DNA of 64,000 nt from NCBI GenBank assembly GCA_943354605.1, contig CALRCK010000002.1, forward strand, positions 135,186-199,185. The letters are read 5' to 3'. Source of the DNA: Candidatus Uhrbacteria bacterium (GTDB taxonomy: Bacteria > Patescibacteriota > Patescibacteriia > UBA9934). Both the position numbers and the translations under genes were made by a program. Under the pieces are notes generated by a model. The model ran no database searches and was not told where the DNA came from. It saw only the letters and a list, made by a program, of their open reading frames with translations. Position 1 is the first letter of the stretch, and each line of letters opens with the position of its first letter. Shown here piece by piece: positions 3,249-62,003 of the stretch.

Positions 3249-3300
3249 ATTAGGGTTAAGCTTAGTTAGTAACAAACTTAGTTAGTCACTAACGTAGTTT
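3249..3300. repeat. tandem 13-bp palindrome array (3 units) upstream of the cupredoxin gene start
   Basis: aagcttagttag-taa-caaacttagttag-tca-ctaacgtagtttg. Confidence 0.75.
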
Positions 3301-3308
3301 GTATGATA

Positions 3309-4622: not shown

Positions 4623-4660
4623 AATGAGTAACTTAGTTAGTCAGTAACTTAGTTTCTTTT
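4623..4660. repeat. tandem 13-bp palindrome array (2 units) abutting the aspS ATG
   Basis: gagtaacttagttag-tca-gtaacttagtttc. Starts 1 nt from the aspS start codon. Confidence 0.75.
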
Positions 4661-28591: not shown

Positions 28592-28700
28592 TTTGCGACG
28601 AGTTTCGATGCGCGGCGAGCGAAGCTTCCGAGACGTACTTCTCGGTACGTTGAGGAAGTTCGCGATGGCGCAAGTCGAAAATCGGCCAAACAGGAAAGCC
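28592..28700. repeat. structured about 110-nt dispersed repeat, copy A (between rpsG and fusA)
   Basis: Shares ...AGTTTCGATG...GAGACGTAC-loop-GGTACGTTGAG...AAGTCGAAAATCGGCCAAA with five other loci. Outer stem gcgaagcttcc/ggaagttcgc. Confidence 0.8.
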
Positions 28701-29261: not shown

Positions 29262-29378
29262 GCTTTTGCATTTGAGCCTAGTTTCGATGCAGGACGAGCA
29301 AAGGTCGCGAGGCGTACTTCATGTGTACGTTGAGCGACTTTGCGATGTCCTAAGTCGAAAATAGGCCAAATGCAAAAG
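29262..29378. repeat. structured about 110-nt dispersed repeat, copy C (between rpsL and rpsG)
   Basis: Same family. Inner hairpin GCGTAC-TTCATGT-GTACGT. Outer stem caaaggtcgc/gcgactttg differs from copy A but stays complementary. Confidence 0.75.
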
Positions 29379-36261: not shown

Positions 36262-36307
36262 CTAACTTAGTTTGTCGCGAACTAAGTTAGTCACAAACTT
36301 AGTTCGT
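36262..36307. repeat. tandem 13-bp palindrome array (3 units) between the leuS stop and the comEC start
   Basis: ctaacttagtttg-tcg-cgaactaagttag-tca-caaacttagttcg. Overlaps the leuS stop codon. Confidence 0.75.
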
Positions 36308-38683: not shown

Positions 38684-39265
38684 ATGGACGTCGTGAAGTC
38701 ACTCCACAAGCTCCAAACCGCCCTGAACATCATTCTCGTCATCTGGGCAACGGTCATCATCGGGTTCGCATTACCGATCGATCATAAATATCACGGTGGA
38801 TGGATCTTCGGCTTAGCGTGGTTCCCGATTGTGCTTTTCGCAACCATCGAAATTGTGACGACGGCAAGGCTCCCAAAACGATTTTTTCCGGCATTCATCA
38901 CCTTCGTAGTGCCATTCATTTTCATCGGTATCAACGTCTTCCGGGGAACAAACGTCAGTATTGAAAACTTCGTCGTACAAACCGCAATGTTGCAATTCAC
39001 CGCAAGCATGCTTGCATTCGCTCTCCAAGCCGCCGTCTTTCCGTTCGTTTACGGAACCGCACAACACACGAAGAACTTTTTCCAAGAAGAAGCGCTCCCC
39101 CAACTCTTCGGTGCCGCGCTTGGACTGGGAGTGTGTTGGTTTGCGTTCAGCTTCCTTCTCACGTACAGCGTCATTACTCCAGCCGATCTTCCACTGATCA
39201 TCGTCGGAATCCTCCAGGGCGGAATCAATCTCGGACAAACACTTTACAAATCTCGCTACGAATAG
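38684..39265 (+). CDS. hypothetical membrane protein
   Basis: Five to six hydrophobic segments. Divergent from leuS. The track ORF starts inside leuS and was trimmed to the ATG at 38684. Confidence 0.5.
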   Translation: MDVVKSLHKLQTALNIILVIWATVIIGFALPIDHKYHGGWIFGLAWFPIVLFATIEIVTTARLPKRFFPAFITFVVPFIFIGINVFRGTNVSIENFVVQTAMLQFTASMLAFALQAAVFPFVYGTAQHTKNFFQEEALPQLFGAALGLGVCWFAFSFLLTYSVITPADLPLIIVGILQGGINLGQTLYKSRYE

Positions 39266-39281
39266 AGGTCCAAAAACACGT

Positions 39282-39313
39282 GTGCCCGCCTGCTCTCATC
39301 GAGCTGGCGGGCA
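39282..39313. terminator. hairpin between convergent gene ends
   Basis: gtgcccgcc...ggcgggcac. Confidence 0.45.
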
Positions 39314-39357
39314 CCGTTCGTCCGTGTCAGTCACCGATTCTCGACAGAGTGCCCCGT

Positions 39358-39888
39358 TCAAAATCGACCGGAGAGTCGTCGGATCACCGCAGCGTCGCTC
39401 GACGCACGAATCGTCGAGATAGCGAAACCGATCGCGAAATCGACAACCGCCTCGCTCCGGTGAATCAGCAGGCCGATCTGCTCATGGGTCATCGTGCCCA
39501 CGGAACCGTCAGCAAAGCCGAAGCGCAACCCCAGGTAGTGCCAGGCAGCAGGGTCCGCCACATGCCGACGAAGAAGCGCGAACGCCGCCGCACGAGAAGA
39601 CTCGGTCCACGCCGACCGCAACACGCCCCCGTAGCGCTCGGCCACGAATGCCGGGAAGTGGTCCCAGTAGCCCGCGACGATGTCTTCCGCGATTCCTGCC
39701 GTAGACACCTGGTCGGCAAACATTGCCCACAGCGCATCCGCCGACGGAATCTCCGGAAGAACGTCGGTCCGAGGGCCGAAGATCTCGGTGAGGCAGCGTT
39801 CGAGCGGATCGTCGGGGCGAACAGCGCTCGCAAGAAGAAGGGCGCGAACGCCCTCCACGTAGGGACGGAAATTCGTATCCAGGGCCAT
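39358..39888 (-). CDS. hypothetical protein in GC-rich islet
   Basis: About 176 aa from the ATG at 39886-39888. GC near 65 percent. No recognisable motifs. Confidence 0.35.
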   Translation of the reverse strand: MALDTNFRPYVEGVRALLLASAVRPDDPLERCLTEIFGPRTDVLPEIPSADALWAMFADQVSTAGIAEDIVAGYWDHFPAFVAERYGGVLRSAWTESSRAAAFALLRRHVADPAAWHYLGLRFGFADGSVGTMTHEQIGLLIHRSEAVVDFAIGFAISTIRASSDAAVIRRLSGRF

Positions 39889-39968
39889 TGGGAAAACCTC
39901 GAAACCGCGGGGAAGGAAATGCGGCCCGCTATTATTAGCCGAAATATAGCGTTTTGTCCAAAATCTGC

Positions 39969-40911
39969 TATGCTCCGCACCATGTCCTTCTCCCTCCCCC
40001 AAGACCTGATTGATCGGCTCGAAGACCAGTTTGGCGCCGCAAAAGCACGCCAAGCCGTCATGGGAATGACGAGCCGCTACGTGACGCTTCGCGTGAACAC
40101 GCTTAAATCCAACGACGCGGAGATTATGGAAATCTTCCGCCAAGAGCTCATTCAGTTCGAACGCGCGAAGAGGTTACCGCATGCGTTCATCGTCAAAAAC
40201 CGAAAGGCGAAGGAACTCCTCAACCACCAGATGTGCCTGAGCGGCCTCGTGTATTTGCAGGGCCTCACATCGATGCTGCCACCGATCGTCCTCGATCCAA
40301 AACCAAACGAATCGATTGCGGATTTTTGCGCAGCGCCGGGGAGTAAAACGAGTCAGATGGCGGCGATGATGGAAGGGAATAGGCAGTTGGAAGTAGGCAG
40401 TAGGCCGAACATTTCCGCGTTTGAACCAAACTTTGTTCGCTATCAAAAACTCCACAACACGCTGAAGATCCAGGGGGCTGAATTCGTCAAAACGCAACAA
40501 ATCGACTCCACAAAACTTGGCGCAATGATGCCGGAAGCGTTCGATAAAATCCTCCTCGACGTTCCCTGCTCTGCCGAAGGACGTATCGATGCGGACGACG
40601 ATCGTTCTTTCGAGACGTGGGGCGACGCAACACACCAAGCGTACCCCGAGCTTCAACGCCGACTCTTTTCCTCGGCCGTTGCAGCGCTCAAACCCGGCGG
40701 CACACTTGTGTATTCCACCTGTACCCTCGACCCGAACGAAAACGAACGCATGATCAACTGGGCGCTCAGCGAGTTTCCCAATCTCACCGCCGAGTCGATC
40801 AATCTCCCATTCCCCGGCATCGTCCACAAAAGTACAAAATCCACCACCCTTTTGCCAACCAAACTGTACGAGGGATTTTTCGTGGCGAAGATGATGAAAA
40901 CGAACCGATAA
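39969..40911 (+). CDS. rRNA cytosine-C5 methyltransferase (RsmB/F, NOL1/NOP2/Sun family)
   Basis: SAM-binding FCAAPGSKT, catalytic LLDVPCSAEG and TLVYSTCTL. Confidence 0.8.
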
Positions 40912-40939
40912 GCTACAGTACACATGCCCAGGAGTTCCC

Positions 40940-41446
40940 GTGACCATGCTCTTCGTTCCGATCGCGCCAACCACTCAGATCGCGCTCAATACCGATCGAG
41001 AAACCGTTACGATCGTTCACATCTTCCCGCTCAGCTTGGACGTCGCCAATGTCGTATCGAGCTTCGCAAACAAGGCCCAGGGTCTTGTGATCACTCGCGT
41101 CACTCTTCCGACGGTGGATCTCCTCGCGCTCGCGTCGCTCATCAACGAACACGTTCCTCGATCGGAACGCTACGGTCCGCGAGGGCCGTTCCAGCAAACG
41201 GGCGTGACGATGGACATCGACCTCCTCAAGTGTACCCTCGGCCTGATGCGGGGCCTCACCGCAGATGAACGCCATGGCACAGACGAGGTCCGAACGTTCA
41301 CCCACGCTGTCAGAGAAGACTGTCAGATCGTTGCCTTCGTAGTGACGTTCGCACGAGCGCACGACATCGCGGTCACGATCGACATGGTGGCGCCAAAGAT
41401 CCTTCAGACTCTCGCCGAACAGCTTCCGGACGTTCAGCCGGGCTAG
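40940..41446 (+). CDS. hypothetical protein in GC-rich islet
   Basis: Balanced composition, in contrast to the R/E/D-rich antisense frame. Followed by a GC hairpin at 41481-41508. Confidence 0.35.
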   Translation: MTMLFVPIAPTTQIALNTDRETVTIVHIFPLSLDVANVVSSFANKAQGLVITRVTLPTVDLLALASLINEHVPRSERYGPRGPFQQTGVTMDIDLLKCTLGLMRGLTADERHGTDEVRTFTHAVREDCQIVAFVVTFARAHDIAVTIDMVAPKILQTLAEQLPDVQPG

Positions 41447-41480
41447 CAGTCCGCGGCCCCTACGCACGCCACAACGAGAC

Positions 41481-42098: not shown

Positions 42099-43346
42099 AT
42101 GGACCTTTTCGATTCCATCCTCACCCAACCATCCGCAAACACGCCGCTCGCGGAGCGGATGCGGCCAAAAACGCTCGAGGAATTCGAGGGGCAGCAGGAT
42201 GTGATTGGGCCGGGTTCGCCGCTCTACACGGCGATCGTTTCCGATGACGTTCCGAGTCTGATGCTTTGGGGGCCGCCGGGAACAGGAAAGACGACGCTCG
42301 CACACATTGTTGCGACGATGACGAAGGCACGATTTGTTCCCTTCTCTGCCGTTGGCGGAAGCGTCAAAGATGTCCGAACCATCATCGACCAGGCGGAAAC
42401 CGATCGAAAATATTACAAACGGAAAACAATCCTTTTTGTTGACGAGATTCATCGGTTTAACAAAGCGCAACAAGACGCGTTTTTGCCGTCGGTAGAAAAC
42501 GGAACGATTATTCTCATTGGTGCAACCACTGAGAACCCATCCTTCGCCGTGAACGGCGCGCTGCTTTCGCGTTCTCGCGTCATCGTCCTCAAACAACTGG
42601 AGCCGGAATCGATCATAAAGATTCTCAAACGCGCGATCACCGACAAAGAACTCGGCCTCGGCACAGAAAACATCGTGATCGACGAGGACGCGATCGGCAT
42701 GCTTGCGAATTTTGCGAACGGCGATGCACGATCGGCGCTCAACACACTCGATCTTGCGGTGAAGACATCAAGGGGCGCACCAATCACCACCGATCTCATT
42801 AAAACCGCGCTCACAAAAAGCCATTTGCATTACGACAAAGACGGCGAAGAGCATTACAACATCATCTCCGCGCTCCACAAATCCATGCGGGGGAACAATG
42901 CGAACGCGGCACTGTATTGGATGGGACGAATGCTGCTTTCCGGGGAAGATCCTCGATACGTCACGCGTCGACTCATTCGGTTCGCGAGCGAAGACATCGG
43001 ACTTGCCGATCCGAATGCGCTGGTTCAGGCCATTGCCGCACACGATGCCGCACAAATGATCGGCATGCCGGAATGCTCGGTTAATATTGCGCAATGTGTG
43101 GCGTACTTATCGAAAGCGCCAAAATCGAATGCGCTTTACACCGCGTGGCAGTCCATTTCCGACGACATCCAAAACCTTCCGAACGAACCGGTTCCAATTC
43201 ACCTTCGGAATGCTCCAACCAAACTCATGAAGGATCTCGGCTACGGCAAAAACTACAAATACACGCCAAATTTCAAAAACGCAGAGGATGCGAGGCAGGA
43301 GTATTTACCAAAGTCGCTCAAGGCAAAAAAGTATTTTTTAGACTAA
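42099..43346 (+). CDS. rarA: replication-associated recombination protein A (AAA+ ATPase)
   Basis: Walker A LWGPPGTGKTTLA, Walker B LFVDEIHRFN, and the MgsA C-terminal domain. Confidence 0.9.
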   Translation: MDLFDSILTQPSANTPLAERMRPKTLEEFEGQQDVIGPGSPLYTAIVSDDVPSLMLWGPPGTGKTTLAHIVATMTKARFVPFSAVGGSVKDVRTIIDQAETDRKYYKRKTILFVDEIHRFNKAQQDAFLPSVENGTIILIGATTENPSFAVNGALLSRSRVIVLKQLEPESIIKILKRAITDKELGLGTENIVIDEDAIGMLANFANGDARSALNTLDLAVKTSRGAPITTDLIKTALTKSHLHYDKDGEEHYNIISALHKSMRGNNANAALYWMGRMLLSGEDPRYVTRRLIRFASEDIGLADPNALVQAIAAHDAAQMIGMPECSVNIAQCVAYLSKAPKSNALYTAWQSISDDIQNLPNEPVPIHLRNAPTKLMKDLGYGKNYKYTPNFKNAEDARQEYLPKSLKAKKYFLD

Positions 43347-43372
43347 CTAAGTTAGTCCCAAACTTAGTTTAA
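43340..43372. repeat. tandem 13-bp palindrome array (2 units) between the convergent rarA and ABC exporter stops
   Basis: gactaactaagttag-tcc-caaacttagttta. Overlaps the rarA TAA. Confidence 0.7.
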
Positions 43373-45139: not shown

Positions 45140-45175
45140 AGAAGAAATGATATCAGAAATGACTTTGGCGCTTTT

Positions 45176-45300
45176 ATTCGCGACCAGTTTCGATGAAGAT
45201 CGAGGAAAGCTTCTGAGACGTACTTCTTGGTACGTTGAAGAAGTTTCCGATGATCTGAATCGAAAATGGGCCGAAGAAATGCGCCAAAAGGAAAGCCGGC
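45176..45300. repeat. structured about 110-nt dispersed repeat, copy B (upstream of the ABC exporter)
   Basis: Same family. Outer stem ggaaagcttct/agaagtttcc is compensatory relative to copy A. Confidence 0.8.
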
Positions 45301-45620: not shown

Positions 45621-46160
45621 TCAACGGTCCCGATACTCCGCGAGGAGCACCGCCGCCGCCCCCACAGCGTCTACCATGGTGTATGCCTCGTGAAGGCTCC
45701 CGTAGCCGAAGCCGCGGCGGACGACGTCCTCCAGGAGCACGCGAAGTGCTGCGAACTCCACGCGGTCCACCAGGATGATGGGCCGATCCGCGGGAATCTG
45801 CCCAAGAAGCTTCCGTGAAATCACGTCGAGCACCTCGAACATCGTTCCGATGCCGCCGGGCAGCGCCACGTAGGCGTCGCCCAGGTCGATGAGCATCTTC
45901 TGCCGAAGCGCGAGTTCGTCGAACTCCACGCGTTCCGTGAACGCGTTGTGCCCGGGCGGGTAGCGCTCCGCATTTAGGAGCACGCCGTGCACCTGACCGC
46001 CAGCTTCCATGGCGCCCTCGCACAGCGCACGCATCATGCCAGGGCCACCACCGTTCACGCAGGTGAATCCAGCGCCGGCAAGGATGCCGCCGAAGTGTCG
46101 CGCAGTCCGAAGGTGGAAGGGACTAGAGGGAGAAGATCCGCAGAACACCGTTACACGCAT
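45621..46160 (-). CDS. LOG family protein (cytokinin riboside 5-prime-monophosphate phosphoribohydrolase-like)
   Basis: Contains GGGPGMM and PGGIGTMFE motifs. GC-rich. Confidence 0.7.
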   Translation of the reverse strand: MRVTVFCGSSPSSPFHLRTARHFGGILAGAGFTCVNGGGPGMMRALCEGAMEAGGQVHGVLLNAERYPPGHNAFTERVEFDELALRQKMLIDLGDAYVALPGGIGTMFEVLDVISRKLLGQIPADRPIILVDRVEFAALRVLLEDVVRRGFGYGSLHEAYTMVDAVGAAAVLLAEYRDR

Positions 46161-49952: not shown

Positions 49953-50216
49953 ATGAACACACATGGTGACGGCATGCCTCACGACTGTACCTGCACTCAC
50001 GGCGCCTCTGATCGCTACTGTTCTCTCCACGGCGAAGACCCGCACACCGATCGTCTCAACCGCGAGCGGCGCCTTCTCGACACTCTCGGTCCGGAGCAGC
50101 GAGCGGAGGCGATCGAGGCCCTCTACGGCAAACGGCCGCAGGAGCCTGCTCGAGCGCCGGACTGCCCGAACTGCCGTCCTGGCAATCCGTGCGAGGCACA
50201 CGCTGGGTCCTTCTGA
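49953..50216 (+). CDS. small Cys/His-rich hypothetical protein
   Basis: 87 aa, GC-rich. Contains DCTCTH...YCSLH...CPNCRPGNPCEAH. Confidence 0.3.
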   Translation: MNTHGDGMPHDCTCTHGASDRYCSLHGEDPHTDRLNRERRLLDTLGPEQRAEAIEALYGKRPQEPARAPDCPNCRPGNPCEAHAGSF

Positions 50217-50283
50217 CCCCTGAACCAGGCGTTGTCATCGCCCACGCGCCGCGATCCTACGCCAAGGGTCGCGGTCGTTCGTT

Positions 50284-57681: not shown

Positions 57682-57945
57682 TTACTCGTGGTTGTGACCT
57701 TCGTGACCCTTCATTTTCTTTGCTGGAGCCTTCTTGACCGTCTTGGCAATAGCCTTCTTTACCTCTGCAGCGCCCTGCTTTGCGACGTTGCGATCGCCGT
57801 ACGCTCCGCAGTTCTTACATGCGCGGTGTGGCAAGAGAATCGCCTCACACTTTGCACATACTGCAACCTGCTGTGGTTTGAGAGCGTGGTGGGAGCGGCG
57901 TCGGCGAACCTTGGAACGTGAGCTTCGGAATGACGGCAATGGCAT
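57682..57945 (-). CDS. rpmF: 50S ribosomal protein L32 with Lys/His-rich C-terminal extension
   Basis: L32 core with C-x2-C...C-x2-C, followed by a KKAIAKTVKKAPAKKMKGHEGHNHE tail. Confidence 0.85.
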   Translation of the reverse strand: MPLPSFRSSRSKVRRRRSHHALKPQQVAVCAKCEAILLPHRACKNCGAYGDRNVAKQGAAEVKKAIAKTVKKAPAKKMKGHEGHNHE

Positions 57946-57971
57946 AAACGATATTTATAGGATTTCTTTAT

Positions 57972-58072
57972 TTGCGACAAATTTGGGTGCGCGACGAGAA
58001 AAGCTTTCGAGACGTACGTATTGGTACGTTGAGAAAGTTTTCGATGTCGCAAGGCCAAAGTTGGCCAAATAA
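57972..58072. repeat. structured about 110-nt dispersed repeat, copy E (upstream of rpmF, bordering the GC-rich islet)
   Basis: Same family. Outer stem gaaaagctttc/gaaagttttc is compensatory. Confidence 0.8.
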
Positions 58073-58142
58073 AGGAATCCGTGAATGCGCAAAGAGTAGC
58101 CAAATATCCAATTGACGTCAAGCCAGAAATAGGGCTATTCTC

Positions 58143-59483
58143 TTGCACCGGCGCAACCGCGCAGGCAGCAAGAAACCCAGAAACCCGGACATTCCCGTGA
58201 TCGACCCGACCGAACGCCGTTCCCCGCTCTTCACCACACTCCTCCCCACCTCGCTCTACGCGGTTCTCGCCAACGTCGATGCGAACGGCAATCTGCCGTC
58301 CGCAGACAGCGGCGGCACCCAGGGCGGCGTCATCTTCCTCCCGGACGGGAACTGCGAGGCCCTCGGGACGAACCTCTGGATCGTCCGCCACGGCACGCGC
58401 CACGTTCCGGAAGGGAAAACGCTCCAGATCTACGCGCCGGGCAACCACCTGGCGAAGGAGATCGGCGGGAACGCGGAGCAGAACCCGTGGTTCGACCAGT
58501 ACGGGGCGCCCTCGCTCGTGGTGTCCGCATTCGAATCCGGTATCACCGGCGCGGACCGCGCCATGGCGCAGGCCATGGCGGACGAGCTCAGCGACATCGA
58601 ATACATGCACGCACTCGACGCGTGCAGCAACGAGATGCTGGCGCATGCGCTCTACACCGACCTACGCGAGCACGTGTCGCTCGAGGAACACCTCGCGAAC
58701 ATCCACGAACTCGAAGGGTTCGCGGACGCGAGCAGTGGCACGATGGGCGACGAGATCCGCGAGTTTCTCGTCGCGATGCGCAATCCGCGCGACAAGATCG
58801 GCCGCTACAACGTGTACCGCAAGGTGCTCATCGTGCGCGCCGTTCAGCGTCGGGCCAAGGGCATCGTGACGGACAAACTCGATCGCGTGCAAGAAATCGT
58901 CGCGGCCCAGAACGCCACGGCGATGTACATCGGCGACGTGGAGCGTTTGGCCGGACGTGCCGCAAGCGTGCTCACCGACAAGCAGCCGTGGTGGACGAGC
59001 AACGGCATCCTGCCGAGCGTCGATCAACACATGCGCCGCAAGTTCGCGAACCGCCTGCGGGGCTACGTGGCCAGTCTCGAATGCATCTACGCCAACCCGT
59101 TCCGTCCGTGGGCAGCCCTCGCGGCGTACCGCATGAACGCGATGGTGATGGGGCTGGAGACGGACCGCTTCCAGGACATCGGCTCCAACTCCGATCACGC
59201 CCGGGGGTACCTGCAGGCGATGCGCGTCCAGGAACGCGTGTCGCGGGGGGTCATGTCGGTTCGGCAAGACGGTGGCATGAGCGCGGCGCATGACGCGCTC
59301 GCTCACGCCATCGACTGGTCGCTGCAGACAGCACCTCGCCTGCGCATCTCCACCGCGAACGTGCGAGAGATCGTTCATGAGAGCCAGGTTGGGCAGCGTA
59401 CCGGGTCCAAGGCGCGGCGGATCGAGGCCTTGCGCAACGTAGAGTGGAACCTGATGGCCGTTGGCGTCGCGCACGCGGCGTAG
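58143..59483 (+). CDS. hypothetical protein encoded in a very GC-rich islet (about 67 percent GC)
   Basis: It is the only frame with protein-like composition across 58.1-59.5 kb. No recognisable motifs. The listed start is TTG; the true start is uncertain (GTG at 58197 or later). Confidence 0.45.
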   Translation: MHRRNRAGSKKPRNPDIPVIDPTERRSPLFTTLLPTSLYAVLANVDANGNLPSADSGGTQGGVIFLPDGNCEALGTNLWIVRHGTRHVPEGKTLQIYAPGNHLAKEIGGNAEQNPWFDQYGAPSLVVSAFESGITGADRAMAQAMADELSDIEYMHALDACSNEMLAHALYTDLREHVSLEEHLANIHELEGFADASSGTMGDEIREFLVAMRNPRDKIGRYNVYRKVLIVRAVQRRAKGIVTDKLDRVQEIVAAQNATAMYIGDVERLAGRAASVLTDKQPWWTSNGILPSVDQHMRRKFANRLRGYVASLECIYANPFRPWAALAAYRMNAMVMGLETDRFQDIGSNSDHARGYLQAMRVQERVSRGVMSVRQDGGMSAAHDALAHAIDWSLQTAPRLRISTANVREIVHESQVGQRTGSKARRIEALRNVEWNLMAVGVAHAA

Positions 59484-59504
59484 ACGGAACACGACGACAA
59501 CACG

Positions 59505-59545
59505 GACGGCCAGGCAACCCTCGGGAAGCCTGGCCGTCATGCGTT
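59505..59545. terminator. bidirectional terminator between the GC-islet ORF and the LysM protein gene
   Basis: acggccaggc-aaccctcgggaag-cctggccgt followed by a T-tract. Confidence 0.6.
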
Positions 59546-59546
59546 T

Positions 59547-62003
59547 CTATTTCTTTTTTTCCTTTTCTTTCGCAGCCTTCATCGCCTGAATCTCCCGCAT
59601 CGCACTATCGAAGGAAACAATCGCGCCAACCGGAATCTTCTTCGCTTGGTCCTCGGAAAGTCCGTTTTCCTGCAGCGTCATGTTTTTCAATCGCGTAATG
59701 CGCGGCGTGCTCCAATTGAGTCCGTTCTCACGCAACATGTGGTGAAGAATCTTATAAATCCATTCCCCCTTTGCCATCACGTGCTGCGTATTGCCTTCTC
59801 GAGGAATATCCTCGTAGGCTTTTGCTGGAACAGATTCGTACCCTGGTCCTGTCGATCCCGCAATCCAGCTTGGTGCGGATTCCGCATGCTGCTGAGCAAT
59901 AGACTGCGAAACATCGTGAGGCTGGTGCTCCACTGAACTAGGAGCTCCGTATGCCGGATGCTGCAATGTCGGCGGCATTTTTCCTTCCATCGCATCCAAC
60001 ATTGAATCCACCGACGCGAGATGAATCGTTTGCCCAATCTGAAGGGTGTCCCAATCCACGCCAGGATTTTCCAAATCGGCGTAATGTTTTAACGTCATGA
60101 TCTTCTCGTGCGTCGGCCGCAATCCCCGATCGTGAATCTTTTCACTGAGCACTTTCCACAACGTTTCACGAGGTGCGACAATATGATCGGTGTTCGGCGC
60201 TTCGGCATGCGTCGCGATTGCTGGTCCCGCGCCCTCTGTGTCTTTGTCGCCTTCACGATCAACGCCAAACGATTCCGACGATCCGTCGTCGATCGTTGGG
60301 TTTTCAAGTGCGCCAGCCACGATATGCGAAGGGTCCGAGTCATTCTCACCGAGCTCGTGAAGTGCAATTGCACCAGCGCCCGCAACAGCACCAAGCCCGG
60401 CAACACCAGCAAACAGTGCGCGAATCTTTGCGCCTGGTGTACGAAGCTGCTTGGACCACCACCCCTCAGGCGCTTCCGAAATAGGTTCTCGTGGAGCATC
60501 CGATGCCGGATGAAGCGCCTCGTGGAGGTTTCGCAAACGTTCCGCATCTCGTTCGCGCTGTTCAGCACGTTGAAGGAGACGTTCACGAGCGCCCTGTATT
60601 GCCACAATGTGCGAACGATCCGCGTTGTTCTCGTAATCCAATCCCTGCATCACTTTCGCAAATGCGTGTTCAACATCTTCCGCAGTAGCGTCGAACGCAA
60701 CGCCAAGCCATTCCTCTGGAGTCTGTTCTCGCACCGATGCTCGTTCAGGGAGAACGTTTGCCATTCGGCCGTGATGCGTTGGAATATCCGAAAAGTCCTC
60801 TTCAGGAGTCGCGACCAGAGGCTTGTGCTCTGGATGCGCCGCGAACCACGCATTCAAGGCTTCAATCCGCGCTTTCACGATAATGAGTTGCGGAATCTCG
60901 TCCGCAACATCGGATTGACTGTCCTCCGACTGCAACGTATCCATCGCGGCAATCACCTCGGGAGACAACGGTCCACGCAACGACTCCACTGAATGCCCCG
61001 TCATCAACGCCAACGACTCAAGAACATCTTCCTCAACTTGGTGGAGCATTTCCAAAATCTCCTGACGATTTTCTCGGGTTTCATTTACGTCGTGTTCTGC
61101 TGCCCTACGACGAGCAACGTCCACACGGTCCTGGAAGCTTTTTTGGATGATGGGGAGTTGCTCGGCAATAATACCGAGCCCTTGCGGATTACCTTCGTAT
61201 GTTTCAACTGTTGCAGGGGGCACATGAGACGATGCCGGAGTTGTCCCAGGATCAGAATGAAAAATATCGCTTTTTTCACCTTTATCATCTGGAACAATAA
61301 ATTCTGAATCCAAATCTCTTGCATCACGAGCATTGCTGTGCGATGGCATGTCCTCTAATTCAGATAACGCACGCGAAGGCGCCTTCGGGGGCTCAAGAGG
61401 TACCGACAATATCTGAACATGCTCCTCAAGCTCGGCACTTCGTTCAGAAGAGATACCCTTTTTCTGCTTTTCACGCTTGTACCACGCCAAAATCTGTTCC
61501 CAAGTCATTGTCCTATTTCGTTGAGCGTTTCCCAACGCTAAACGTTCGAGCATGCGCGAGGTTCGATCCACGCCGGGCGCCTGTCCATGAATACTTTTTG
61601 GGAGAAGCCGAAGAACTGTTTCCAATCGCTCAGAACGTCGTCCAAACTTTTTCTGCGCTTGCGTGATGAGATGCTCAAGAAATCCAAGAACAGCCAATTC
61701 GTGTTCATGCTCTGGTGTTGATTCCCAATGTCCATCCGGACCATGTCCGGCTTCCTGCCTGTCACGCATCAAAAAATACCGCTGACGAGCTCTTCCCCAA
61801 ATAGGATCCGCAAACGAAGGGTGTTCCTTGACCATTCGATCAAATCGGCGCTGTGCTTCACCGTTGCGTCGTTCTGCCTCGGTCATTCCTTTATGAAACT
61901 CCGCGTCTAATCGCAAAAACACCTCTGGAGCATCGCGCCTCGATCTCCCCCCAGGAGGCGTGTTCCCAGGAGTGAGTAATTCTTTCATGGACATATTGCA
62001 CAC
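59547..62003 (-). CDS. large hypothetical membrane-anchored protein with two C-terminal LysM-like domains
   Basis: 818 aa. Acidic, low-complexity N-terminal half, one transmembrane segment (IRALFAGVAGLGAVAGAGAIAL), then two about 50-aa segments matching the LysM pattern (...TLWKVLSEK...LQIGQTIHL and ...EWIYKILHHM...IPVGAIVSF). Confidence 0.5.
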   Translation of the reverse strand: MCNMSMKELLTPGNTPPGGRSRRDAPEVFLRLDAEFHKGMTEAERRNGEAQRRFDRMVKEHPSFADPIWGRARQRYFLMRDRQEAGHGPDGHWESTPEHEHELAVLGFLEHLITQAQKKFGRRSERLETVLRLLPKSIHGQAPGVDRTSRMLERLALGNAQRNRTMTWEQILAWYKREKQKKGISSERSAELEEHVQILSVPLEPPKAPSRALSELEDMPSHSNARDARDLDSEFIVPDDKGEKSDIFHSDPGTTPASSHVPPATVETYEGNPQGLGIIAEQLPIIQKSFQDRVDVARRRAAEHDVNETRENRQEILEMLHQVEEDVLESLALMTGHSVESLRGPLSPEVIAAMDTLQSEDSQSDVADEIPQLIIVKARIEALNAWFAAHPEHKPLVATPEEDFSDIPTHHGRMANVLPERASVREQTPEEWLGVAFDATAEDVEHAFAKVMQGLDYENNADRSHIVAIQGARERLLQRAEQRERDAERLRNLHEALHPASDAPREPISEAPEGWWSKQLRTPGAKIRALFAGVAGLGAVAGAGAIALHELGENDSDPSHIVAGALENPTIDDGSSESFGVDREGDKDTEGAGPAIATHAEAPNTDHIVAPRETLWKVLSEKIHDRGLRPTHEKIMTLKHYADLENPGVDWDTLQIGQTIHLASVDSMLDAMEGKMPPTLQHPAYGAPSSVEHQPHDVSQSIAQQHAESAPSWIAGSTGPGYESVPAKAYEDIPREGNTQHVMAKGEWIYKILHHMLRENGLNWSTPRITRLKNMTLQENGLSEDQAKKIPVGAIVSFDSAMREIQAMKAAKEKEKKK

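Follow-up and report, generated by a model that had tools for sequence, protein, structure and literature searches.

An old GC-rich single-gene unit beside rpmF in Candidatus Uhrbacteria: evidence for a base composition that belongs to the gene family

In a stretch of 64,000 nucleotides from a genome of Candidatus Uhrbacteria (assembly GCA_943354605.1, contig CALRCK010000002.1, positions 135,186 to 199,185; the whole stretch is called the window in the following), we analyzed a conspicuously GC-rich block located between the ribosomal protein gene rpmF and a gene for an 818-aa membrane-anchored protein. The block encodes a single protein of 428 aa, and its gene is referred to here as the orphan gene. 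Taken as a whole, the results are best explained by an old insertion that brought or acquired its own transcription unit, has been inherited mostly vertically, evolves fast and is GC-rich throughout its family, an explanation which we consider likely. Comparison of the related sequences largely shows that the high GC content is a property of the gene family and not of a recent donor.

Compositional step and its conservation among relatives

The abrupt GC jump described in the original prediction was recovered in 200-nt windows, with GC contents of 0.45–0.49 before the step (57900-58199), 0.59–0.69 within the block (58100-59599) and approximately 0.50–0.53 past 59500; in a 60-nt profile, the values climbed at about 58110 and dropped at about 59520. 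Measured against 300-nt windows over the 64-kb window (mean GC 0.524, standard deviation (sd) 0.047), the block represented its longest and most GC-rich segment, with 64–69% GC over 58100-59545 and the orphan gene having a GC content of 0.66 compared to 0.52 for the window. As had also been claimed, only one frame in the block, the plus-strand frame of 58143-59483, showed a coding signature (GC of 0.66, 0.45 and 0.87 at the first, second and third codon positions, respectively), the remaining long open reading frames (ORFs) being frame-shifted shadows of it. The GC content at third codon positions (GC3) averaged 0.57 (sd 0.074) over 66 further long ORFs of the window, from which the orphan gene deviates by about 4 sd; apart from it, only a LOG-family gene at 45621-46160 stood out clearly (GC3 0.77).

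Relatives of the encoded protein were found to be rare: a search of 5.8 billion protein clusters returned five, and a profile hidden Markov model run on 1.84 billion representative proteins returned 20. The genome records give their organism as Candidatus Uhrbacteria. Judged from these searches, the orphan gene appears to found a family with very few members, all of them confined to a single sub-clade of Candidatus Uhrbacteria within the candidate phyla radiation (CPR; Patescibacteria), and this restriction can be regarded as largely shown. In 10 out of 10 distinct relatives with contigs extending past the gene, the same arrangement was present, namely rnc-nusB-rpmF, the orphan gene on the opposite strand, a large membrane protein gene and gyrA, the latter being 85–97% identical wherever the contig included it. 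One distant member (P0022, locus L013) resides elsewhere, in a glycosyltransferase cluster. One contig, CAYROW010000011.1 (locus L009), is labelled as a metagenome-assembled genome (MAG) of an ‘uncultured Gammaproteobacteria bacterium’, yet its gene order matches that of the Uhrbacteria locus and its RNase III is 96% identical to that of the window; the contig is probably a binning contaminant or mislabelled.

Every family member examined exceeded its own flanks by 8–19 GC points, with a GC3 excess of about +0.17 to +0.4 (Table 1), and the excess was also seen in a 45%-GC genome. Across the family, GC3 ranged from 0.60 to 0.87, the window gene (W; 0.87), L005 (0.82) and L001 (0.74) differing from each other though they are close relatives. 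Since the synonymous sites of the flanking genes are saturated (synonymous divergence, dS, > 1) and no lineage lacks the excess, which recurs in a second genomic context, a recent transfer that has not yet been ameliorated does not fit these data. The original prediction had named a common core gene with naturally high GC content as the finding that would speak against it. The gene is indeed GC-rich in every lineage, but only within one sub-clade; with about 20 clusters in 1.84 billion, absence from sister Uhrbacteria-like lineages and a ratio of non-synonymous to synonymous divergence (dN/dS) of 0.26–0.55, it is not a universal or core gene.

Table 1. GC content of family members and of the sequences flanking them.
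Locus	Gene GC	Flank GC
L001	0.61	0.52
L004	0.61	0.49
L005	0.64	0.52
L010	0.61	0.51
L011	0.53	0.45
L013 (different context)	0.64	0.41-0.47
L014	0.63	0.52
L016	0.64	~0.5
L017	0.65	~0.5

The compositional bias extends to the amino acids and to codon choice. Arginine accounts for 8.4% and lysine for 2.1% of the residues (about 4:1), compared to roughly equal proportions in host proteins, and the orphan gene prefers CCG, GGC and GCG, whereas ribosomal genes prefer CCA, GGT and GCA. Its codon adaptation index (CAI) is 0.62 versus 0.83 for EF-Tu. High expression was rejected as a cause of the GC3 bias, because the CAI is average and the choices at four-fold codons are opposite to those of ribosomal and elongation factor genes. 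Avoidance of short motifs, as for a self-targeting nuclease, was likewise rejected: compared to synonymous shuffles, only out-of-frame TAA-containing words and some G/C runs were depleted, revealing no clear target. The predicted mRNA folds with -47 kcal/mol per 120 nt compared to -30 to -35 kcal/mol for host genes, being about 50% more stable, and it is also more stable than synonymous shuffles of the same gene (z = -4.1 for the window; -2.2 to -3.1 in five of six orthologues).

Within the clade, the identity of the orphan protein follows that of gyrA (Spearman 0.83), at very different rates: gyrA and rnc are 94–97% identical where the orphan is 43–85% identical. The dN/dS values of the orphan gene, compared to approximately 0.02 for its neighbours, are below 1 in all pairs, and its frame is therefore under purifying selection, albeit weakly. 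On the strength of these alignments, the orphan protein appears to change about ten times faster than its housekeeping neighbours, which is largely shown.

The gyrA-rpmF junction itself differs between lineages. In a sister lineage (P0043; NusB 72% identical), gyrA, rpmF, nusB and rnc are directly adjacent with a gap of 82 nt, neither the orphan gene nor the 818-aa gene being present in this interval; in another Uhrbacteria lineage, the position is occupied by PAP2 and bPH_2 genes of normal GC content. The orphan gene was absent only from such more distant lineages, with nusB 68–72% identical. These empty and alternative sites indicate that the junction is variable and that the orphan gene and its 818-aa neighbour represent a derived insertion. 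Taken together with codons that are not optimal for the host, the insertion relative to the sister lineages makes a foreign, or at least non-ancestral, origin plausible. To this extent, the earlier proposal of a horizontally acquired gene stands; a recent acquisition is not supported, considering the fixed locus in 10 out of 10 relatives and the divergence that tracks gyrA. In the sequence of events that we propose, the orphan gene would have entered the tight gyrA-rpmF junction in the ancestor of the sub-clade, with or beside the 818-aa gene, and its promoter would have been built back-to-back on the pre-existing rpmF promoter, the -35 element of which may have been extended into the palindrome TTGACGTCAA. 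Since then, inheritance would have been mostly vertical, under purifying selection that is weak but real.

Gene anatomy and the encoded protein

The original prediction gave the frame as 58143-59483, with a product of 446 aa, and noted that it has no clean ATG start. The latter observation is correct for the window; the start was moved from the TTG codon at 58143 to the GTG codon at 58197, since all homologues open with V/M-I-x-P at this position, three distant ones having ATG there. The gene therefore comprises 58197-59483 and encodes a product of 428 aa (Table 2).

Upstream of the gene, a putative sigma-70-like promoter was identified, the -35 element of which is one half of the palindrome TTGACGTCAA (58112-58121) and lies back-to-back with the putative promoter of the rpmF operon. 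From its sequence, the palindrome can serve as the -35 element for both promoters. The motif TTGACG-17-TACTAT/TAACAT is also present upstream of rpmF in the orphan-less lineages L021 and L019, and in orphan-less lineages only the rpmF half (TTGACG) of TTGACGTCAA is found. A 60-nt promoter block, GAATGCGC..GTAGC.AAAT..TTGACGTCAAG, is almost invariant among orthologues with proteins that are only 31–67% identical. We infer promoter function for both elements. The leader preceding the start codon contains only a weak Shine-Dalgarno-like CGGA, most orthologues having AGGA, and folds no more stably than shuffled sequences (z = -0.4).

The bidirectional terminator previously proposed downstream of the gene was borne out by a strong hairpin (59503-59541) with z-scores of -4.3 on the plus strand and -5.7 on the minus strand, and it is common to the orphan gene and the convergent 818-aa gene. 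A strong hairpin just past the stop codon was detected in 10 out of 10 orthologues examined, although with differing stem sequences, and is followed by a T-rich tract in eight of them, the tract being weak in L014 and L017. No co-transcribed partner gene is present, the neighbours being divergent (rpmF) and convergent (818-aa gene). With its own promoter-like element, GTG start, coding sequence (CDS) and terminator, the block thus forms one self-contained monocistronic unit, and its status as a stand-alone transcription unit with conserved promoter-like and terminator elements is largely shown.

The 428-aa protein matched no entry in Pfam, NCBIfam, PHROGs or PADLOC, and a search of all 23 family members against the same collections yielded only scattered matches at chance level, including one each from PADLOC for two of the 23 members and none from PADLOC for the window protein. 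A profile search of PDB sequences up to E = 10 returned nothing. An AlphaFold2 model built on the alignment of 23 sequences, which replaces an earlier run on five sequences (predicted local distance difference test (pLDDT) 57.7), reached a pLDDT of 87.4 and a predicted template modelling score (pTM) of 0.81. It comprises an N-terminal beta domain (approximately residues 1-112) and an all-helical domain (115-427) of long helices forming a bundle. A hydrophobic stretch at the N-terminus was modelled with high confidence as a beta strand, and neither a catalytic motif nor a signal peptide or transmembrane segment could be recognised. According to the model, the product is predicted to be a folded, soluble, cytoplasmic two-domain protein with a conserved core and a fast-evolving periphery, which we regard as shown at the level of the prediction.

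Foldseek searches of this model against PDB and BFVD recovered only generic helical bundles (E > 0.2, template modelling (TM) score < 0.26). The best of them, spectrin-like and other helical-repeat bundles (3kbt, 1u4q and 5j1i), share long antiparallel helices with the orphan protein; with E ≥ 0.35, TM ≤ 0.26 and a root-mean-square deviation of about 30 angstroms, the matches are not meaningful, and the beta domain has no counterpart in them. In the family alignment, invariant and near-invariant positions cluster in R.N.YR.VLIVRAVQRRA, QPWW and ANPFRPWA, the helical domain containing an invariant Arg/Asn/Trp cluster (D199, R203, N205, R208, R214, R218, R219, W265, W266 and P301). Tentatively, these residues allow a non-enzymatic role to be imagined, in which the cluster would bind an anionic partner, for example a nucleic acid or a phosphorylated envelope precursor, and the fast-evolving beta domain and C-terminal helices would track a variable partner; as a complete account of function, we consider this rather unlikely to be right.

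Neighbouring genes, repeats and other features of the window

Table 2. Features in and around the GC-rich block (window positions).
Feature	Position	Strand	Details
rpmF (ribosomal protein L32)	57682..57945	-	Pfam PF01783 (L32p), E 2e-16
Near-perfect hairpin repeat (‘copy E’), 116 nt	57960..58075	.	minimum free energy -48.7 kcal/mol, z = -7.0
Putative rpmF-operon promoter	58093..58121	-	-35 TTGACG (58121-58116), 17-nt spacer, -10 TACTCT (58098-58093); read from sequence
Putative orphan promoter	58112..58141	+	-35 TTGACG, 18-nt spacer, -10 TATTCT; sigma-70-like; consensus scan
5' leader, GC-rich, ~50 nt	58142..58196	+	weak Shine-Dalgarno-like CGGA only; AGGA in most orthologues
Orphan CDS	58197..59483	+	428 aa, GTG start, TAG stop; GC by codon position, dN/dS <1 in all pairs, homologues P0001-P0023
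Bidirectional intrinsic terminator	59503..59560	.	11-bp GC stem, 59505-59515 paired with 59528-59538; T-run on + strand
818-aa membrane-anchored protein gene	59547..62003	-	convergent with orphan gene; GC 0.52, GC3 0.49

The assignment of the upstream gene to rpmF was confirmed by its L32p domain. It is the first gene of an rpmF-nusB-rnc operon transcribed away from the orphan gene, and this gene order is kept in all orthologous loci that extend that far. The hairpin repeat between rpmF and the promoter region (‘copy E’) had been taken as a boundary of the GC-rich block. It was not found in the rpmF-orphan spacer of any orthologous locus examined and therefore entered the rpmF leader and spacer later, in this lineage only; it is situated upstream of the orphan promoter and outside the orphan unit. 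Three more copies are present in the window (28592-28690, 29270-29371 and 45173-45252) and another in L010 (4192-4274). All of these repeats, approximately 100–116 nt long, are intergenic, occupying the rpmF leader, the rpsG-fusA and rpsL-rpsG spacers and a site upstream of an ABC transporter. The absence of ‘copy E’ from orthologous loci also indicates that the hairpin element is or was mobile, comparable to miniature inverted-repeat transposable elements or repetitive extragenic palindromes (MITE/REP-like); no Rfam family matched it at the gathering threshold.

The downstream neighbour had been called a LysM protein, a label that could not be retained, since no LysM domain was detected with Pfam at E <= 0.1; no other Pfam domain was found at E <= 0.01. 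The protein has a cytoplasmic region at its N-terminus and a single transmembrane segment; at its C-terminus, two LysM-like repeats are visible, by eye only. One of its homologues showed a faint DnaJ match. It is 29–59% identical to its counterparts in genomes with gyrA 94–96% identical. The distant member at L013 is also followed by a convergent gene for a large membrane protein, which is unrelated to the 818-aa protein (BLASTP E > 6); a functional link between the orphan and the large protein downstream was rejected on this ground.

Smaller GC-rich islets elsewhere in the window had been reported to carry one orphan ORF each. This may apply to the ORFs at 40913-41467 and 49963-50223, for which no Pfam match was found, but not to the islet at 39280-39960 or the gene at 45621-46160, both of which belong to known families. 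The former lies in the N-terminal 270-residue extension, itself without a Pfam match, of a 592-aa ORF (39133-40911, plus strand) with an RsmB/F-type rRNA methyltransferase domain at residues 288-587. The latter is the LOG or ‘possible lysine decarboxylase’ gene (PF03641, minus strand; GC 0.65, GC3 0.77) and lies approximately 350 nt from a copy of the hairpin repeat. Furthermore, short palindromic repeats of the CTAACTTAGTTAG type, often in tandem pairs, were found at 1549-1594, 3273-3302, 4628-4657, 36262-36307 and 43327-43372, mostly at or near gene ends, and a second palindrome family, TTCAACCCTTAGGGTTGA, at 2321, 11073, 24158 and 30470. Both are probably species-specific terminators or REP-like elements.

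Alternative explanations and biological meaning

Several observations weigh against an old unit with mostly vertical inheritance and a family-wide composition. Between L009 and L010, the synonymous divergence of the orphan gene is only 0.21, far below that of its flanks (> 1), and identity is mosaic over approximately 1100-2950 (L009 coordinates), with about 0.80–0.85 in rnc and nusB and 0.91–0.97 in rpmF, the spacer and both ends of the orphan gene, which suggests recombination tracts at the locus. Because of the low value in this pair, either inheritance was not purely vertical, some recombination having occurred, or the synonymous sites are constrained. The orphan promoter is a prediction from a consensus match and conservation. 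No homology that would point to a function was obtained from Pfam, NCBIfam, PHROGs, PADLOC, PDB sequences or Foldseek structures. With respect to mRNA folding, control genes also surpass their synonymous shuffles (mean z of about -1.3; EF-Tu -2.9) and orthologue L011 shows no excess (z +0.4), so that selection on mRNA structure is only suggestive. Finally, in the less extreme lineages, the excess could be due in part to slow amelioration, provided that the ancestral gene was extremely GC-rich.

Among the alternatives, the strongest holds that the gene is old and that a force specific to this gene actively sustains its GC excess, either a hot spot of GC-biased gene conversion or selection for a very stable mRNA; we regard this as a serious contender, with somewhat less than an even chance. 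The very stably folded GC-rich mRNA may then be what is maintained. This explanation accounts for a GC3 of at least 0.60 in every lineage despite saturated flanks, and for the excess in the second context; the variation of GC3 among close relatives suggests a dynamic equilibrium, the L009-L010 mosaic and low orphan dS suggest recombination, and the mRNA is more structured than synonymous shuffles. However, the equally variable 818-aa gene, which shares the same conserved flanks, has a GC3 of only 0.49, which speaks against a simple regional conversion hot spot, and the mRNA-structure z-scores lie only modestly beyond those of the controls. Polarised third-position substitutions (GC to AT 25:1 to 44:3) were not used, because parsimony is biased and the outgroups are saturated and GC-rich, leaving this test uninformative. 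Elevated GC3 in recombining bacterial genes was reportedly attributed to GC-biased gene conversion by Lassalle et al. in 2015. The orphan gene resembles such cases in its gene-specific rise in GC3 and its signs of recombination, but the effect is far larger and includes GC-shifted amino acids, and the hypervariable neighbour is unaffected. Conversion is usually credited with a few GC points only.

A bolder version, which we hold to be possible but unlikely, would combine a previously unseen fold with a heritable, gene-specific composition lying 8–19 GC points above that of any host, across saturated synonymous divergence and in at least two unrelated contexts. If this were true, the force would act on this one transcription unit, through selection for extreme stability of the mRNA or of the DNA segment or through a hot spot of conversion at this site, and the composition would not be a fading signature of a donor.

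The original prediction favoured a horizontally acquired cargo gene, for example a toxin, an abortive-infection gene or a defence factor, which is considered here as a recent arrival from a high-GC donor. Lawrence and Ochman are said to have provided the framework of genomic islets and amelioration for such compositionally atypical, laterally acquired ORFan islets, and the orphan gene is similar to them in being a single accessory gene with non-host GC content and codons at a variable junction, absent in some relatives. Its fast evolution and the occurrence of a distant member (L013) in another context would also agree with cargo. Unlike such islets, however, the gene is not recent, being syntenic and GC-rich across a sub-clade with saturated flanking synonymous sites, its promoter is fused to that of a ribosomal protein gene and highly conserved, and its divergence follows that of gyrA. 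Neither mobility genes (integrase, transposase) in the ORF list or Pfam results at the borders nor flanking direct repeats in the repeat search were found, and the closest tRNAs lie on the far side of rnc, at a distance of 1.7 kb, offering no tRNA target. No homologues from a donor lineage were detected among the 1.84 billion representatives, in phage and plasmid collections searched with tblastn or in two IMG/VR scans, and a search of the literature on Uhrbacteria revealed nothing relevant to this locus. The toxin, abortive-infection or defence role was not supported either, as no PADLOC, PHROG or Pfam matches above chance were obtained in 23 members and no operon partner is present. We therefore consider recent cargo improbable.

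Still less probable is that the true product is encoded antisense or in another frame, which GC richness keeps open. The codon-aligned antisense frame contains only 0–4 stops in 12 out of 12 members, with none at all in L010 and L016, and a raised dN/dS of the sense frame and the low synonymous divergence in one pair would agree with it. An open antisense frame is, however, expected from the scarcity of A at third positions, as antisense stops correspond to the sense codons TTA, CTA and TCA, of which one was observed in the window compared to about three expected (an estimate from counts). Moreover, the positions of the stops vary from one orthologue to the next, substitutions are still about twice as frequent at third as at first and second codon positions, and the conserved promoter and terminator are consistent with the sense gene. 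Despite the abrupt compositional step at both ends, an assembly chimera, in which a high-GC contaminant fragment was joined into a 52%-GC contig, can be dismissed, since the same junctions with conserved promoter and terminator recur in independent assemblies (NCBI MAGs, ENA, JGI and Logan) that stem from separate samples and were produced with separate pipelines, and an identical protein is encoded on two contigs; the mis-assembly that had been named as a possible refutation is thus excluded.

A large number of CPR genes lack an assigned function, CPR genomes commonly contain orphan genes, and an unusual GC content is a well-known signal. The orphan gene agrees with CPR hypothetical families in being lineage-restricted, without assigned function and part of a small CPR genome, and differs from them by its conserved compositional anomaly, its divergent promoter shared with rpmF and its approximately tenfold faster protein evolution. 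What is unusual here is a GC anomaly that is conserved clade-wide and in two contexts, in a family without detectable sequence or fold relatives. Atypical GC content is routinely taken as a sign of recent horizontal transfer; for this gene that inference is wrong, since the whole clade shares the anomaly at one fixed locus and a second context shows it again. Even if the product proves to be an ordinary CPR hypothetical protein, the case indicates that compositional islets should be compared with their relatives before being labelled as cargo. Something besides donor ancestry may hold the composition of the orphan gene in place, and the gene thus represents a compact test case for the upkeep of gene-specific base composition in tiny CPR genomes, as well as for the role of a fast-evolving, clade-specific protein encoded beside the ribosomal rpmF operon.

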